A stretch of 64,000 bases of DNA from Escherichia phage vB_EcoM_PHB13 (MK573636), one strand, 5' to 3'; shown: positions 12,618-63,110, counted from the stretch's first letter. The notes: generated by a model from the letters alone, not told the origin. A program made the numbers and translations.

Positions 12618-12782
12618 ATGAAAACTATGAATGTAAACATCCACGAAATCCATACCGAAGTATTCACCGAAGAAGACCAGTTTGGTGTATGGGTAAATCC
12701 TCATTCGATTACTATCGATATTCCTAATGACGATTATGATCCGTTCTCTCTGATTAGCGAGATTAGTTTCAATGACTTCTGA
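12618..12782 (+). CDS. small hypothetical protein (54 aa)
   Basis: ORF below track cutoff; acidic; weak SD. Confidence 0.3.
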   Translation: MKTMNVNIHEIHTEVFTEEDQFGVWVNPHSITIDIPNDDYDPFSLISEISFNDF

Positions 12783-13251
12783 AATTGATATCTATGCGGG
12801 TGGACCTTATCCATCGGGTGAATTGAGTAATTTCAATAAAAGACCATTCCGTCTATTTGGTTGCGATATTAACAGCACAGAAGGATTTTTACAGGGGCTA
12901 AGATTTAAGAACCCTCAGAGACAAAGAGAAATCTTTTTGATGCATGGTGGCAAAGCAAAAAGAACCGGAAGAACTGAAAAGATTGAGAATCACATGTTAT
13001 ATTTTCAGGGTCGCCCGATTCATCGAATGAGTGAGCATTATTACAAACTGGTACATCTGGCATTTGTTACGATGGCACGGAATAACCCAGAATTTTGTAA
13101 AGCATTACTCTCGACCGGAAATAAGAAATTACGTCATAGTATAGGTGGAACTGATCCGTTAAAGACTATATTGACTGAATCGGAATTTTGTAGTATCCTC
13201 AATGATATTCGTGAACGTTTAACAAAACGAGGTGAAAATGTCAATTCTTAA
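12772..13251 (+). CDS. NADAR (YbiA/DUF1768)-like protein
   Basis: Motifs LSNFNKRPF, STEGFLQG, GKAKRTGR, LLSTGNKKLRHS match NADAR family signature from memory. Confidence 0.55.
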   Translation: MTSEIDIYAGGPYPSGELSNFNKRPFRLFGCDINSTEGFLQGLRFKNPQRQREIFLMHGGKAKRTGRTEKIENHMLYFQGRPIHRMSEHYYKLVHLAFVTMARNNPEFCKALLSTGNKKLRHSIGGTDPLKTILTESEFCSILNDIRERLTKRGENVNS

Positions 13252-14734
13252 TATCATTAATCAGCTTGCAGCAACAGACAAAACATCGCTGAAAGAAAAG
13301 ATCCTGAAAGAATCTGCAAGCAATGAAACGCTGAAAGAATGCTTTTATCTGGCATATTGCAAACAGGTTACGTTTGGCGTAAAGAAATACGATAAACCAT
13401 CGCGTTATTCGTCTGTATTGTCTTTATCCGGTGCATTACAGGTCTTTAAAAATAAACTTGCCACGCGTCAAGTAACTGGTAACGCAGCATTACAGCTAGT
13501 TACCGATACTCTGACTTGCTTGTCAGAAGATGATGCTAAAGTTGCAATGATGGTCCTGAATCGTGATCTGGAATGTGGTTGTTCCGCTACCACTGCAAAC
13601 AAGGTATGGAAGAAACTGATCCCCCAGCAACCGTGTCACCTTGCATCGTCATGTTCTGATAAGACTATTGCTAATATCAAGTATCCGGCGTATGCACAAC
13701 TTAAAAGCGATGGCGCTCGTGGTATGGCTGATATTGACGGGGAAACATTAGCAATCTATACCCGTTCAGGTAATACCTATCAGGGACTTGATGATTTGTT
13801 TGCGGTTTTAGAGCGTCTACGAGGCCGTGGAATTGTTCTAGATGGCGAATTGGTATATATGCCTACCCTTTCGCAAACACCAGCGCAGAACTTCGTTGAG
13901 AGCATTTATGATGGTACTCTGTCATGGATATTTGAAGAAGAGGAAATGCCATTAACGCCAGTAGCGGAAGCAGTAAAAGAATCCGTTGTTGCAGATCGTC
14001 AGACCGGAAATGGTATCCTCAACAAATCACTGAAAGGAACTATTCCAAAAGAAGAAGCCCAATGTATTGTTTACACTGTCTGGGATGTTATCGACCGTGA
14101 TGTGTATTACGGAAACGAGAAAGCAACGAAGCAATATAAAGATCGATTCGAAGAACTAAAACAGATTGTTGAAGAACTTAACGATCCTCGTGTTCAGATA
14201 ATCGAAAACACTGTAGTTAACAATATAGATGAAGCTCGCGAAGTATATCATCGCTATGTAAACATGGGCTTAGAAGGTATTATCCTTAAAAATTTACATG
14301 GTGTATTTGAAGATCGTCGCAGTAAAGATCAGGTTAAATTTAAAGAAGTGATTGACTTCGACGCGGAAATTGTTGATGTATATCCGCATAGTAAAGACCC
14401 TAATAAGGTAGGCGGTTTTACTGTCCGTAGTGCGTGCGGACGAATGATGACTAACACCGGATCGGGATTGACTGACACCACAACCGAAAAAGGTGATGAT
14501 GGTATTGAACGTGTAATTCCGTTCGATCGTCGAAATGAACTCGACCGAGAAATGTTATGGGCTGACCGTCATAACCTGATTGGAAAAGTCATTGAGATGA
14601 CATGCAACGGGTATATCCGCAGCAAATCACGTAAAGAAGATGAACCGGAGTTCTCTTTATTTCTCCCGATCATCAAACGTATTCGCTACGACAAGACCAC
14701 TGCAAATACAGTAAAAGAGGTATTCGATGTGTGA
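13232..14734 (+). CDS. gp30: ATP-dependent DNA ligase
   Basis: 500 aa; colinear with T4 gp30 incl. RDLECG and adenylylation motif KSDGARG. Confidence 0.9.
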   Translation: MKMSILNIINQLAATDKTSLKEKILKESASNETLKECFYLAYCKQVTFGVKKYDKPSRYSSVLSLSGALQVFKNKLATRQVTGNAALQLVTDTLTCLSEDDAKVAMMVLNRDLECGCSATTANKVWKKLIPQQPCHLASSCSDKTIANIKYPAYAQLKSDGARGMADIDGETLAIYTRSGNTYQGLDDLFAVLERLRGRGIVLDGELVYMPTLSQTPAQNFVESIYDGTLSWIFEEEEMPLTPVAEAVKESVVADRQTGNGILNKSLKGTIPKEEAQCIVYTVWDVIDRDVYYGNEKATKQYKDRFEELKQIVEELNDPRVQIIENTVVNNIDEAREVYHRYVNMGLEGIILKNLHGVFEDRRSKDQVKFKEVIDFDAEIVDVYPHSKDPNKVGGFTVRSACGRMMTNTGSGLTDTTTEKGDDGIERVIPFDRRNELDREMLWADRHNLIGKVIEMTCNGYIRSKSRKEDEPEFSLFLPIIKRIRYDKTTANTVKEVFDV

Positions 14735-38548: not shown

Positions 38549-38576
38549 AGCCATCCTTCGGGGTGGCTTTTTTGTT
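38549..38576 (+). terminator. rho-independent terminator (AGCCATCC-TTCG-GGGTGGCT + T6)
   Basis: Read directly after hoc. Confidence 0.75.
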
Positions 38577-39257: not shown

Positions 39258-39695
39258 ATGAAATTCCGTAAAAACCACGTAGCAATGAAAAAGGCAATGT
39301 TCGAAGCATTCAAAGCAGTTGATCAGGGCGGTGTTACTCTGATTGAGCAAATTAATGTTGATGTTTGGCAATCTCCGGCGATCACCTGCTCCCGTCTTGC
39401 TACGGCTGGACTTCTGAAAGTTCACAGCTCTACCGCATACGACGAAGCATTGCAAGTTATTAAGGCTTTTTCTGGAGACGTTACCAGCAAGTTGGTCTAT
39501 GAGAATAAAGGTGAAATTGCGGTTGCTCACGTAGGCAACAATATCCAGATGGAGATCAAGATTAAGGAAGGGTCTAAACGCAATCAGATGCTTGTTCGCT
39601 TCCAACCATACAAAACTAACGTAGTGCCGGATGATCTGATCATCTCTAAGAGTAATGTTACCATTCGCCGAAATCAGATCGTTATCAACAAATAA
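39258..39695 (+). CDS. hypothetical protein (145 aa)
   Basis: ORF with SD GAGGTGA; followed by terminator. Confidence 0.55.
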   Translation: MKFRKNHVAMKKAMFEAFKAVDQGGVTLIEQINVDVWQSPAITCSRLATAGLLKVHSSTAYDEALQVIKAFSGDVTSKLVYENKGEIAVAHVGNNIQMEIKIKEGSKRNQMLVRFQPYKTNVVPDDLIISKSNVTIRRNQIVINK

Positions 39696-39703
39696 TTAAC
39701 ATT

Positions 39704-39730
39704 AGCCGTCCTTCTGGGCGGCTTTTTTGT
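39704..39730 (+). terminator. rho-independent terminator (AGCCGTCC-TTCT-GGGCGGCT + T6)
   Basis: Same family as 38549 and 63084. Confidence 0.75.
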
Positions 39731-39781
39731 ATCTGTTATCAACATAATTTTAGTTTACATGTGCACAATATTAATACTGTT

Positions 39782-39808
39782 TGATTAAATTGTGACCAAA
39801 ACGAAGAA
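39782..39808. repeat. 27-nt imperfect direct repeat, copy 1 (TGATTAAATTGTGACCAAAACGAAGAA)
   Basis: Matches copy 2 at 24 of 27 positions, ~148 nt away, in 380-bp AT-rich non-coding region. Confidence 0.6.
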
Positions 39809-39929
39809 AGATCTTTAGAACATAGAAAATGTATCTTTGGTTAATTATTAATCACTACATATTGTAACACAAATGTTATACTCCGTAGGAGTTCGCGAAG
39901 CGATATCCTTTTGTGTAGTTTTTACATAT

Positions 39930-39956
39930 ATGATTAAATTATGAACAAAACGAAGA
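39930..39956. repeat. 27-nt imperfect direct repeat, copy 2 (TGATTAAATTATGAACAAAACGAAGAC)
   Basis: See copy 1. Confidence 0.6.
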
Positions 39957-40108
39957 CTTATCTTATAGAATAATAAAAATTTGTTTCGAACATTTATTAA
40001 TCAATTACTGGAAGTGTTTTAATGCTCGCTGTGCTCGCTTCCGCTACGCGGATACTTGTATTTGTTATTAACTTGTAGTATGATATTGCTTTCTATGGAG
40101 GAAATATT

Positions 40109-40696
40109 ATGTTTGACCAGTTACAAGATCTATTTGGAGTAAAACCACTTCGTAGATGTGCTCTTATAGGCTCTAGAAAAGCGCCTAACGACATTTTGAT
40201 AATGGCTAGTACCATTGGGAGGGTATTGTCAGAAAATCGCGTTGTAGCGCATTCTGGAGGGGCTTACGGTATGGACAATGCTTTCATGAAGTATTACGAC
40301 CCAGATTATAGAAAAATTTTCATTCCAAATTGGAAGTTTTACGATCATAAGCATAATGGTCGTGATGTGATTGCGTGGCAGACTCTAGAGCAAAAGAATC
40401 TGGCGATGGATGAATTAGAACACGTTTATGATAATCCTCGTTCTATACCGTTATACATGCAAAATCTGTTTTCTAGAAATGTTGCTCAAGTCTTAGGTGA
40501 GACACTTGATGATCCTGTAGATTGTGTGTTATTTTGGGCGAAAGAAGTTAATGGAATCGTTTCGGGAGGAACTCGAATTGCTGTCTATATTGCTCGTAGA
40601 CATGGGATACCATGTTTTAACTTATATCATCAAGAAAATAGATCCGCCGTCGAAAAAATATTGGGCGGATCTGACTTGTCTTGGTTAGATATTTAG
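40109..40696 (+). CDS. SLOG-superfamily (DprA/Smf- or LOG-like) Rossmann-fold protein
   Basis: ALIGSRKAP, AHSGGAYGMDNAF, NLFSRNVAQVLG, NGIVSGGTRIAVYIARRHGIPCF match DprA/LOG signatures from memory; convergent with gene 24. Confidence 0.45.
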   Translation: MFDQLQDLFGVKPLRRCALIGSRKAPNDILIMASTIGRVLSENRVVAHSGGAYGMDNAFMKYYDPDYRKIFIPNWKFYDHKHNGRDVIAWQTLEQKNLAMDELEHVYDNPRSIPLYMQNLFSRNVAQVLGETLDDPVDCVLFWAKEVNGIVSGGTRIAVYIARRHGIPCFNLYHQENRSAVEKILGGSDLSWLDI

Positions 40697-41938
40697 TTAA
40701 GCGTTGTCAATCTCAAGCGGTGGCAGTTCGATTCCTAAAATGTAGGACATTTCTGAACGTCCAGCCATTTTACCCCAATCGTCACCCTTGATGACCTGGT
40801 GTTCTTCCTGATCAACTTTTGATGTGTATGGGTTGACAGAGAGTGAATAACGATTCATAATAGCTACATGATGCTGGAAGCTATTAGGGTCAATTACGCT
40901 CTTATACGCGCCAGCGCCGTCGGCTTCTGTATATGGGGAGTAGAACAGAGAACCTACACTCTCCATATCACCGATCATGTGCTTACAACCAACGAGCATA
41001 TAATCGAAAGGTGTTGTCGTGTCTGCGTACACTTCCAGACCGCAACGTAGACGACCTTCGCTTAGAGCATTGTCGGTTTCTTCCATCCAACCGGTAGATT
41101 GCAGGAGGCCAACCACGCGAGAAGACGCCAAAACGTATGTACCAGCAAAGGAGGAAGTCCGCAACATTTGATTGCTCATCTCGCAAGCATAGCGGTAAAG
41201 TTCACGCGCTTGTGTTGGTGCATCCTGAACGCTAACGAGAGAAAGTACGCCATCAGGGGTGATCCCTTTAATTTTATAGCGAGATGATACAGTGATCAAC
41301 TTCTGAATAATATCTTTGTTGATCTCTTCGGAAGCAACAGTAGCCAGAAGATCAATTACAGAGTTTTCAGAGTTGATTTGGCTTGCCTCAAGATCCTGCA
41401 TTAATTCAGTGGTGAACGAGGTTTTCAGTTTACGAGAACCTACATTAACTTGCCACTTGTCAAACTGCATAGAGGTAGACGCAATTTCGGTGTTTTTATC
41501 TTCAAAGTATTCTACCGATGCACAATCGCTATAGAAACGAATTTTGTTTGTCATTACGCCTTTAAAGATCGCAGCTTCTGGAGTTGCGGCATCTTCACCG
41601 ACTGTACCAGCGGTCACAACTTCGTATACAACATCGCCTGATTTGAATAGTGCGCCTTCGTCATAAGATTTTTCTTTTGAAAACTCTTCAATCTCTGTGC
41701 GATCACCAACCGCTCCACCGTAGGTTGCAGCAGTTCGGAAAGTCATCTGACCATCATGATTAAGATAACGTAGGCCGTACAATGCAGATACTGGTTGATC
41801 CGTTGGTTGGATTGCTACCAGATCAGAGAAAATCAGGTTGTTTACCGCGCGAGTTAATGATAATAGTTGCGGTCGCGCTGTCTGGTTAGCTACTGAGGAA
41901 GTAGATTCCCGCAACAGTTCAGTAAAAATATGAGTCAT
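40697..41938 (-). CDS. gp24: head vertex protein
   Basis: Colinear with T4 gp24 (ELLRESTSS, KRYKIKGITPDG, GSLFYSPYTE); start set at MTHIF because track start 41986 runs over the late promoter. Confidence 0.9.
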   Translation of the reverse strand: MTHIFTELLRESTSSVANQTARPQLLSLTRAVNNLIFSDLVAIQPTDQPVSALYGLRYLNHDGQMTFRTAATYGGAVGDRTEIEEFSKEKSYDEGALFKSGDVVYEVVTAGTVGEDAATPEAAIFKGVMTNKIRFYSDCASVEYFEDKNTEIASTSMQFDKWQVNVGSRKLKTSFTTELMQDLEASQINSENSVIDLLATVASEEINKDIIQKLITVSSRYKIKGITPDGVLSLVSVQDAPTQARELYRYACEMSNQMLRTSSFAGTYVLASSRVVGLLQSTGWMEETDNALSEGRLRCGLEVYADTTTPFDYMLVGCKHMIGDMESVGSLFYSPYTEADGAGAYKSVIDPNSFQHHVAIMNRYSLSVNPYTSKVDQEEHQVIKGDDWGKMAGRSEMSYILGIELPPLEIDNA

Positions 41939-41975
41939 GTTTATGAATCCTGTATTTGCCTTAATGGATATATCA

Positions 41976-41983
41976 TATTTATA
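41976..41983 (-). promoter_or_regulatory. late promoter -10 box TATAAATA for gene 24
   Basis: Exact TATTTATA on + strand ~40 nt upstream of gp24 ATG. Confidence 0.65.
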
Positions 41984-42675
41984 CAAAAAGAAAAAGGAAT
42001 CCGAAGGATTCCAAAAATAAACTTACTTCTTCCTAGAAACATTATCAACGCTACGGTTAACTTTGTTTACCATATTAATTGCATGATCAGAACGAATAAT
42101 TGCATAAGCTAATGCTAACATCAATTCGTTGTATTCCTTACGAGTCATAACATAGCTGTTTTCTTTCTTACTCATGCATTCCTCCTTATGGAGAATTTTG
42201 GGTTAATTCAGGGAACAGCGTACCAAAACCAAAAATTATCGCTAGCGTCACGCTGGAATGCCATAACAAGGTCGACATACACCAGATCTGTATATCTACC
42301 AAATCTATCCGACCCAATATCAACATGAACGCTCATTTCATTCATTGGTCCTTTGCCATGCAGTTACTACGAAAATTGGTGAAATTGTTTGTTGTGTTTT
42401 AATAAATCCAGCATCAAAAGCAATTACACATATCATAGCCACCGGATTTAGGCTCGCGACCCCCGATGTTCTGCATCTTCCTGTCTTTGTTGTGTGTATC
42501 TATTTTTCGCTCCCAATAGAATATAGGCTTGCAACCTTATTTATAACGGGATATAATACGCAAAAAGGGAAGACCCTTTCGAGTCTTCCCTTTGGAATTA
42601 ACACTTTACACTGTCATAAGGTTTATGATAAGTCGGGTATTGCACCCGACCGGAGTTTTTCAGGAATGGCTTATA

Positions 42676-63073: not shown

Positions 63074-63083
63074 AAATACATAC

Positions 63084-63110
63084 AAAAAAGCCGCCCACAA
63101 GGACGGCTTA
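63084..63110 (-). terminator. rho-independent terminator (AGCCGTCC-TTGT-GGGCGGCT + T7) after methyltransferase gene
   Basis: Same hairpin family as + strand 38549 and 39704. Confidence 0.75.

Follow-up and report, generated by a model that had tools for sequence, protein, structure and literature searches.

The stretch of DNA analysed here, 64,000 nucleotides of Escherichia phage vB_EcoM_PHB13 (MK573636; hereafter the window), comes from a Krischvirus, a T4-like coliphage of the RB49/Phi1 type, and encodes beside its capsid genes a small protein of the SLOG superfamily. What does such a protein do for a virulent phage? The locus is in itself an ordinary, already annotated member of a known and widespread phage family, PHROG 768, whose Phi1 representative (ORF164) bears the RefSeq name 'DprA-like DNA recombination-mediator protein', and we found no sequence difference that would set the window protein apart from the phage proteins annotated in this way (Phi1 ORF164, phi92 gp047). 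A literature search on PHROG 768 itself found no experimental work. For jumbo phages, DprA/Smf copies have been discussed as possible extra ssDNA-binding proteins in recombination (Iyer et al, 2021). Among the uncharacterised accessory genes that large virulent phages carry, this family ranks with the more widespread. The present analysis adds two points: the name 'recombination mediator' does not stand up to a residue-level test, and the family has ties to ligases as well as to genes of ADP-ribose processing and repair.

The gene and its transcription unit

The gene and the features upstream of it are as follows.

40109..40696, + strand: coding sequence of the DprA-like SLOG protein (195 aa), orthologue of Phi1 ORF164, assigned from the ORF listing, PHROG 768, the Phi1 annotation, dN/dS and the AF2 model
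40097..40101, + strand: Shine-Dalgarno sequence GGAGG, 7 nt 5' of the ATG of the SLOG gene, by direct sequence reading
39258-39695, + strand: ORF165 (145 aa), in place of T4 gene 24.2; PHROG 15652 (unknown function), no Pfam match
39704..39729, + strand: strong intrinsic terminator behind ORF165 (stem of 8 bp, 6 of them GC, followed by a T-run), dividing the SLOG gene from the hoc-24.3-ORF165 transcript
39730..40096, + strand: AT-rich spacer (30% GC) 5' of the SLOG gene, presumed to hold an early or middle promoter

The frame runs from ATG to TAG and encodes a 22-kDa protein, which recurs at 95-99% identity in 58 Krischvirus records; the surrounding 3 kb share 98.6% nucleotide identity with Phi1 and 98% or more with dozens of RB49/GEC-3S-type phages. 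Against four orthologues, dN/dS was 0.06-0.15 (0.06-0.07 for Phi1-type orthologues, and 0.15 for the orthologue from the metagenomic locus L004, with 86% protein identity). The GC content of the gene is 39.0%, against 40.6% for the window. This is a real gene under purifying selection and no chance ORF.

The original prediction had described a 195-aa protein with paired glycine-rich motifs, convergent with the capsid genes and located at a synteny break relative to T4, and each of these points was confirmed. GSRKAP at residues 21-26, HSGGAYGMDNAF at 48-59 and NGIVSGGTRIAVYIA at 148-162 are all present, and the gene lies tail to tail with gene 24 (capsid vertex; 40697..41938, - strand). In T4 the very same slot, facing gene 24, is taken by rnlB (RNA ligase 2), with 24.2, 24.3, hoc and inh coming next, while the window order is inh, hoc, 24.3, ORF165, SLOG gene; from this comparison, the SLOG gene and ORF165 fill the slots of rnlB and 24.2. 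A search of the 64-kb window for Rnl2 found none, and the same was true of NAMPT and DUF4326, the sole NADAR match being a gp30.3 homologue 27 kb away. Two possible origins of ORF165, as an rnlB remnant or as kin to the small spacer ORFs that lie between Rnl2 and the SLOG gene elsewhere, were rejected, as it has no Pfam match and the PHROGs are all different.

The SLOG gene and gene 24 have touching stop codons (40694-40699), with zero intergenic bases and no terminator between them, so that the early or middle transcript and the late transcript must run into each other's 3' ends. On the gene 24 side, the mechanical ORF reaches a TTG at 41986 (extension 41938-41986, - strand), and the late-promoter motif TATAAATA at 41976-41983 falls inside it, in favour of the shorter start, equivalent to 41938, that the Phi1 annotation uses.

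The T4-type late promoter TATAAATA is present before genes 24, 23 and 22 (- strand) and was not found 5' of the SLOG gene. Considering also the upstream terminator and the gene's own spacer, the SLOG gene is an independent, non-late transcription unit, presumably expressed early or in the middle period from a predicted promoter within the spacer. The spacer between terminator and gene, given as 385 bp when the terminator is counted as 39704-39723, holds only weak sigma-70-like promoter matches (e.g., 39942-39971), and its RNA fold is unremarkable (z -0.83). It also contains a 26-bp direct repeat (39782-39807 and 39931-39956, 92% identical), which could represent duplicated promoter or regulatory elements. 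The terminator stem-loop sequence occurs three times in the window, after hoc (38549-38575), after ORF165 (39704-39732) and on the - strand at 63080-63108, with 89-97% identity over 27-29 nt. Mobile 'promoter-early stem-loop' cassettes have been reported in RB49-type phages; the spacer was rejected as such a cassette, as only the terminator recurs in the window, plus the one internal 26-bp repeat.

The protein is a DprA-type pocket core

The AF2 model (pLDDT 93.7) has the three-layer alpha/beta Rossmannoid fold with a parallel sheet that characterises the SLOG superfamily, and the glycine-rich SLOG loops GSR (residues 21-23), SGGAxGxD (49-56) and GGT (153-155), placed behind strand 1, behind strand 2 and ahead of the late helix, are 79-100% conserved among 161 sequences. 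Loops and fold together bear out the earlier assignment to a SLOG/DprA-like fold. Four motifs line up with known SLOG proteins.

40169..40186, + strand: motif 1, GSRKAP (residues 21-26), the DprA 'G-S/T/A-R' loop; G21, S22, R23 and P26 are kept in 90-99% of 161 homologues
40253..40276, + strand: motif 2, SGGAYGMD (residues 49-56), the second glycine-rich loop, aligning with DprA SGxAxGxD; G50 and D56 are invariant
40466..40489, + strand: motif 3, LFSRNVAQ (residues 120-127), the DprA 'F/L/Y-x-x-R-N/D' helix
40565..40582, + strand: motif 4, GGTRIA (residues 153-158); G154 aligns with G164 of H. pylori DprA (HpDprA), and Ala158 stands at the position of the LOG catalytic Glu

For the comparison with bacterial DprA/Smf (PF02481), we used the DprA proteins of H. 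pylori (PDB 4LJK/4LJR), S. pneumoniae (3UQZ) and R. palustris (3MAJ). The DprA domain is defined by the ssDNA-binding motifs G-S/T/A-R and F/L/Y-x-x-R-N/D, and LOG by PGGxGTxxE (Wang et al, PMC3950713). Both DprA motifs are present in the phage protein: in hhalign, G21-S22-R23 and L120-F-S-R123-N124 fall on HpDprA G50-R52 and F140-N144, with G50/T51/R52, F140, R143, N144 and G164 of HpDprA paired with G21/S22/R23, L120, R123, N124 and G154. R23 thereby occupies the place of R52, the pocket 'switch' arginine, and Q127 in the same helix as R123 is specific to the phage clade. Conservation at these DprA-equivalent pocket positions is 80-99%, the median identity of family members to the query being 33%. 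We infer that the pocket binds a nucleotide unit.

Sequence searches place the protein in its phage family more readily than in any bacterial one. The match to PHROG 768 is full-length (E 2.7e-60, 204 bits, residues 15-187 on profile positions 4-181 of 191). The matches to Pfam PF02481 (22.5 bits against a cutoff of 29.6, residues 15-60 only) and to NCBIfam TIGR00732 (dprA; 14.5 bits against 191) are both below threshold, and 28/35 relatives likewise match DprA/Smf at sub-threshold E-values only (best 4.6e-6). A sequence search of the PDB with the single protein gave no match, DprA being reached by profiles and structure only; a profile search of the PDB with E-values up to 10 returned no YpsA or ThsA match and, as the best LOG match, a non-significant one (E 0.067). 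The values listed for other proteins were 13.3 for the Moco carrier protein, 9.9-12.5 for LOG-type proteins including TM1055, 11.2 each for YpsA and ShosA, and 10.4 for ThsA-SLOG with 3'cADPR. The original prediction had proposed comparison with DprA, LOG and YpsA-type families, and the outcome is that the DprA clade is closer than the LOG, YpsA or ThsA clades. Within BFVD, the phage DprA-like clade is tight (E <= 2e-7, TM 0.6-0.78), with the Marseillevirus-type and YspA/YAcAr-type viral SLOG proteins much farther away (TM ~0.43-0.47). The signature of the family can be written as GSRxxP, SGGAxGxDxAF, PxxxF, LxxRNxxQvLG, GGTxxAxxxA and IPxxN.

The apparatus for loading RecA is missing

Outside the pocket, the likeness to DprA ends. 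The HpDprA contacts K137, Y108 and R170, which are non-conserved, are not kept in the phage protein (M117, K81 and Y160). The RecA-binding residues E235, M238 and D243 of S. pneumoniae DprA correspond to Y160, R163 and P168, and E265 has no counterpart; of its dimer interface (249-275), G249 aligns to H174 and positions 250-275 have no counterpart. The alignment to DprA stops at residue 174, after which there is only a tail helix of ~20 residues, so the phage protein comprises the ~160-residue DprA core alone, without the SAM domain, the C-terminal extension or the winged helix. It has in turn invariant residues unlike those of DprA (P26, P73/F77, Q127, G130, N171), and its gene belongs to a virulent phage, whereas DprA has a competence or SOS setting. 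As the pocket is kept while the RecA triad, dimer zone, SAM domain and winged helix are missing, the protein is best described as a DprA-type nucleotide-pocket core without the RecA-loading apparatus. On these alignments it is predicted to work like the DprA pocket, yet it is no DprA orthologue, and the database name 'recombination mediator' is unsupported at the residue level.

These findings bear directly on the possibility that the protein is a true recombination mediator, which would supplement UvsY by binding ssDNA and loading UvsX (or host RecA). The database name, the ssDNA-binding suggestion of Iyer et al (2021) and the conserved ssDNA-pocket motifs speak for it. However, besides the missing interface and domains and the sub-threshold DprA scores, the phage already has UvsY and UvsW in a separate unit ~4-6 kb away, and uvsX or recA was linked to the SLOG gene in 0/27 sampled loci (described below). 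We consider this function improbable, and a canonical RecA loader was rejected, considering that the interface is missing.

A second role suggested by DprA-like proteins of bacteria would be that of an antitoxin mimic, standing in for ShosA or PsyrA and neutralising the PRTase toxins of the ShosTA/PsyrTA defence systems. The phage protein does share with ShosA and PsyrA a DprA-type Rossmann core and the same two arginines needed for function, and PADLOC reported PsyrA at 21.2 bits and ShosA at 18.3 bits. Both matches, however, are limited to ~45 N-terminal residues, a region common to all DprA-like proteins. ShosA and PsyrA have ~300-400 aa, carry a SAM domain, dimerise, bind RecA and are partnered by a PRTase toxin, and the phage protein lacks all of these; no PRTase toxin gene lies beside the SLOG gene, whose neighbours are ORF165 and gene 24. 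Orthology with ShosA/PsyrA was rejected on the N-terminal-only match and the missing toxin partner. As ShosA function requires dimerisation, the SAM domain and RecA binding, mimicry is also a weak explanation, and the host range of the family (marine, rhizobial and Pseudomonas phages) probably far exceeds the distribution of ShosTA/PsyrTA. Of all the roles considered, we regard this one as the most improbable.

LOG enzymes, cADPR sensors and ORF83

LOG phosphoribohydrolases (PF03641) carry PGGxGTxxE, in place of which the phage protein has SGGTRIA; the T+3 position is Ala in 154/160 sequences and T+2 is never acidic. None of the LOG Pfam models matched among 35 family members, and a LOG-type hydrolase was rejected considering the missing catalytic Glu. 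Nor does the protein have its closest kinship, in sequence or structure, with the cADPR-sensing SLOG clade of ThsA/YpsA.

One functional precedent is ORF83. According to the EVADES preprint (10.1101/2025.06.06.658234), which cites Gao et al (2022), the phage 'Smf/DprA' protein ORF83 and the DNA ligase ORF55 inhibit type III Avs; the preprint describes ORF83 as lacking the DprA dimer and RecA residues and as a predicted AMP binder. Like the window protein, ORF83 is a small stand-alone phage SLOG without DprA dimer or RecA residues, with an R-N motif and a Thr-containing glycine loop in its pocket; its relatives are fused to DUF4326, and it is found alongside ORF55, which is also anti-Avs3. However, ORF83 has R89-N90 and T112-x-D114 at a spacing of 23 residues, whereas the phage family has 27-41 (query 32) and I157 replaces the Asp, and the best PDB match of ORF83 is LOG, not DprA. 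The Marseillevirus-type relatives of ORF83 match the window model weakly (TM 0.43). From the different pocket geometry and the structural distance of the marseilleviral relatives, ORF83, compared here by its published description, probably belongs to a sister SLOG clade. The ORF83 sequence is absent from the EVADES and dbAPIS supplements; phiEco32 was rejected as its source, since ORF83 there proved to be a GlmS-type enzyme, and ZL19 encodes no more than 73 genes.

Family members and their genomic neighbourhoods

By tblastn, the family occurs in 1,343 of ~50,700 phage records, most commonly in phages of Klebsiella, Pseudomonas, Escherichia, Aeromonas, Vibrio and Acinetobacter, and an exhaustive profile search gave at least 4,316 clusters at 50% identity with E <= 1e-3 (2,733 with E <= 1e-10). 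Nearly all members are stand-alone proteins of 160-230 aa, which holds for all of the best 120 of 296 in a word-indexed search. The rare fusions join the domain to NADAR (three separate clusters), to DUF4326, to RecJ (DHH-DHHA1-OB) or, in polyvalent proteins of 1,475-1,488 aa, to YAcAr-SLOG, LDcluster4-SLOG and NADAR.

Neighbourhoods were sampled by hand at 27 loci; a narrow-alignment search for related loci gave only 6. In 8/27 loci, the SLOG gene has a ligase (Rnl2 or NAD-dependent DNA ligase) no more than three genes away. Rnl2 lies immediately upstream of the SLOG gene, with overlap, in Jiaodavirus UTI-K4 and an RB43-like Klebsiella phage (the latter has the pair at a different genomic position); a single small ORF separates the two genes in Bragavirus, Emdodecavirus phiM7 and Providencia phage PSTCR6. 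NAD-dependent DNA ligase is found at +3 on a 99.5-kb contig and at +2 on a 292-kb jumbo contig. The eighth case is the T5-like Vibrio phage Chester (L024, 1854-4973), whose SLOG gene is flanked by the genes for the two subunits of a split NAD-dependent DNA ligase. A rough binomial estimate over the first 21 loci gave P from 1.5e-4 to 0.07 depending on the assumptions, and in a hold-out of six loci the linkage appeared in 1/6, a non-independent T4-type arrangement. Considering this range and a hold-out that repeats only the T4-type case, we take the ligase linkage to be real but partial, and some of it may arise simply because both genes reside in replication modules.

Other neighbours include DNA polymerase, helicases, RecJ, RNase T, PIN-PhoH and RNR, and the gene also occurs in N4-type early regions. 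NAMPT, with or without PRPP synthetase, is nearby in Pakpunavirus, Otagovirus and the RB43-like phage, and the Otagovirus locus has in addition a weak Macro-like neighbour.

In the window, the NADAR gene is itself adjacent to a ligase.

12772-13251, + strand: NADAR protein of the gp30.3/AdfN type (PF08010, E 4.6e-38)
13232-14734, + strand: gp30, ATP-dependent DNA ligase (PF01068), its start overlapped by 20 nt by the NADAR gene

NADAR removes ADP-ribose from guanine in DNA, and T4 gp30.3 (AdfN) defeats DarTG1. As T4 AdfN is a proven de-ADP-ribosylase, the window phage probably carries an anti-DarTG1 counter-defence that is translationally coupled to its ligase. The adjacency of NADAR to ligase, that of SLOG to ligase and the fusion of NADAR to SLOG form a triangle of associations.

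A candidate role in repair or shielding of damaged nucleic acid

We tentatively favour, while rating its probability at somewhat under one half, a role in which the pocket would hold a nucleotide on single-stranded, nicked or damaged nucleic acid, the protein serving as a repair or shielding accessory to ligases, NADAR and RecJ against host defences. The phage would make a minimal, stand-alone DprA-type SLOG domain early or in mid-infection, whose pocket could grip a nucleotide on single-stranded, nicked or chemically damaged (e.g., ADP-ribosylated) DNA or RNA, much as H. pylori DprA does with a flipped-out base. It might then act as a substrate-binding or protecting accessory for RNA ligase 2, NAD-dependent DNA ligase, the NADAR de-ADP-ribosylase and RecJ, and would work against host systems by which phage nucleic acids are nicked, cleaved or ADP-ribosylated. 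Pointing this way are a pocket closer to that of DprA than to those of LOG or ThsA, the fusion to RecJ, the linkage to ligases, the DNA substrate of NADAR and the precedent of ORF83 and ORF55 against a nuclease-effector system, and from them we infer a nucleic-acid ligand as opposed to a free nucleotide, a partnership with ligase and NADAR, and a role in counter-defence.

Several observations weigh against this role. The HpDprA contacts K137, Y108 and R170 are not conserved, and DprA binds ssDNA with high affinity only as a two-pocket dimer, for which the S. pneumoniae-type interface is missing in the phage protein. The invariant polar residues D56, Q127, T155 and N171 resemble specific ligand recognition or catalysis more than generic strand binding. 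The ligase linkage is partial, the Krischvirus window being itself without Rnl2, and ORF83 is apparently in a different SLOG clade. The links to NADAR, DUF4326, Nudix, Macro-like and NAMPT genes would suit a soluble ligand derived from ADP-ribose or NAD equally well. Net charge was non-discriminating as a test of ssDNA binding (query pI 6.6, family median 8.5).

The NADAR, Nudix, DUF4326 and NAMPT contexts, together with the invariant polar pocket residues, support the main rival, a small-molecule sponge or hydrolase. Such a protein would sequester or cleave a free adenine nucleotide or an NAD/ADP-ribose derivative (AMP, ADPr, ADPr>P or cADPR isomers), either blunting host immune signalling or clearing by-products of NAD-dependent repair; a survey of viral SLOG domains, which recorded Macro, NADAR and DUF4326 as fusion partners, predicted a function in sensing or degrading immune signals derived from ADP-ribose (Iyer et al, 2022). 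However, the family is nearer to DprA than to the LOG, YpsA or ThsA clades and lacks the acidic residue of PGGxGTxxE, and the RecJ fusion and the ligase, polymerase and helicase neighbours indicate nucleic acid. As NADAR acts on ADP-ribosylated DNA, fusion to it no longer implies a soluble ligand, and Avs3, which ORF83 inhibits, uses no nucleotide messenger. We consider a free small-molecule ligand possible but doubtful.

A more specific form of the nucleic-acid role is speculative and, in our estimate, unlikely, if less so than recombination mediation. The SLOG domain would be more than a passive binder, namely a base-flipping enzyme or adaptor that recognises a modified nucleotide in single-stranded or nicked nucleic acid, such as a base carrying ADP-ribose or the 5'-adenylated end left by abortive ligation. 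NADAR, Nudix, HAD and one of the ligases (Rnl2, LigA or gp30) would be its partners in an undescribed 'de-ADP-ribosylation and reseal' pathway that defeats defences of the DarT, Avs-nuclease or anticodon-nuclease type.

Should the ligase, NADAR, Nudix and RecJ links prove functional, the family would give access to the ways in which phages mend or shield nucleic acids after an immune attack, be it DarT ADP-ribosylation, nicks made by Avs or Cap4-type nucleases, or cleavage of tRNA. It might likewise account for the anti-Avs3 activity scored for both a SLOG protein and a ligase.

Further observations on related loci

Some homologues are labelled 'RNA ligase' or 'putative RNA ligase' (Pantoea phage Phynn, P0007; Escherichia phage vB_EcoM_Skers, H18), probably a mis-annotation by positional transfer from T4 rnlB. 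The early region of a T7-like metagenomic contig (L031, 1889-8720) encodes a SAM lyase, RNA polymerase and then the SLOG protein (228 aa), with a stand-alone DUF4326 gene 2.5 kb downstream. On another contig, with RecJ, PIN-PhoH and an RNase T-type exonuclease, a match to Pfam 'Tad6' (anti-Thoeris) lies ~5 kb downstream of the SLOG gene (L017, 11188-12048). The jumbo Stenotrophomonas phage RAS14 (L032, 2143-4043) has an operon of four overlapping genes, NADAR, HAD (of the 'Swiss-Army-Knife RNA repair' type), Nudix and SLOG, which are annotated as hypothetical or mislabelled 'GTP cyclohydrolase II'.
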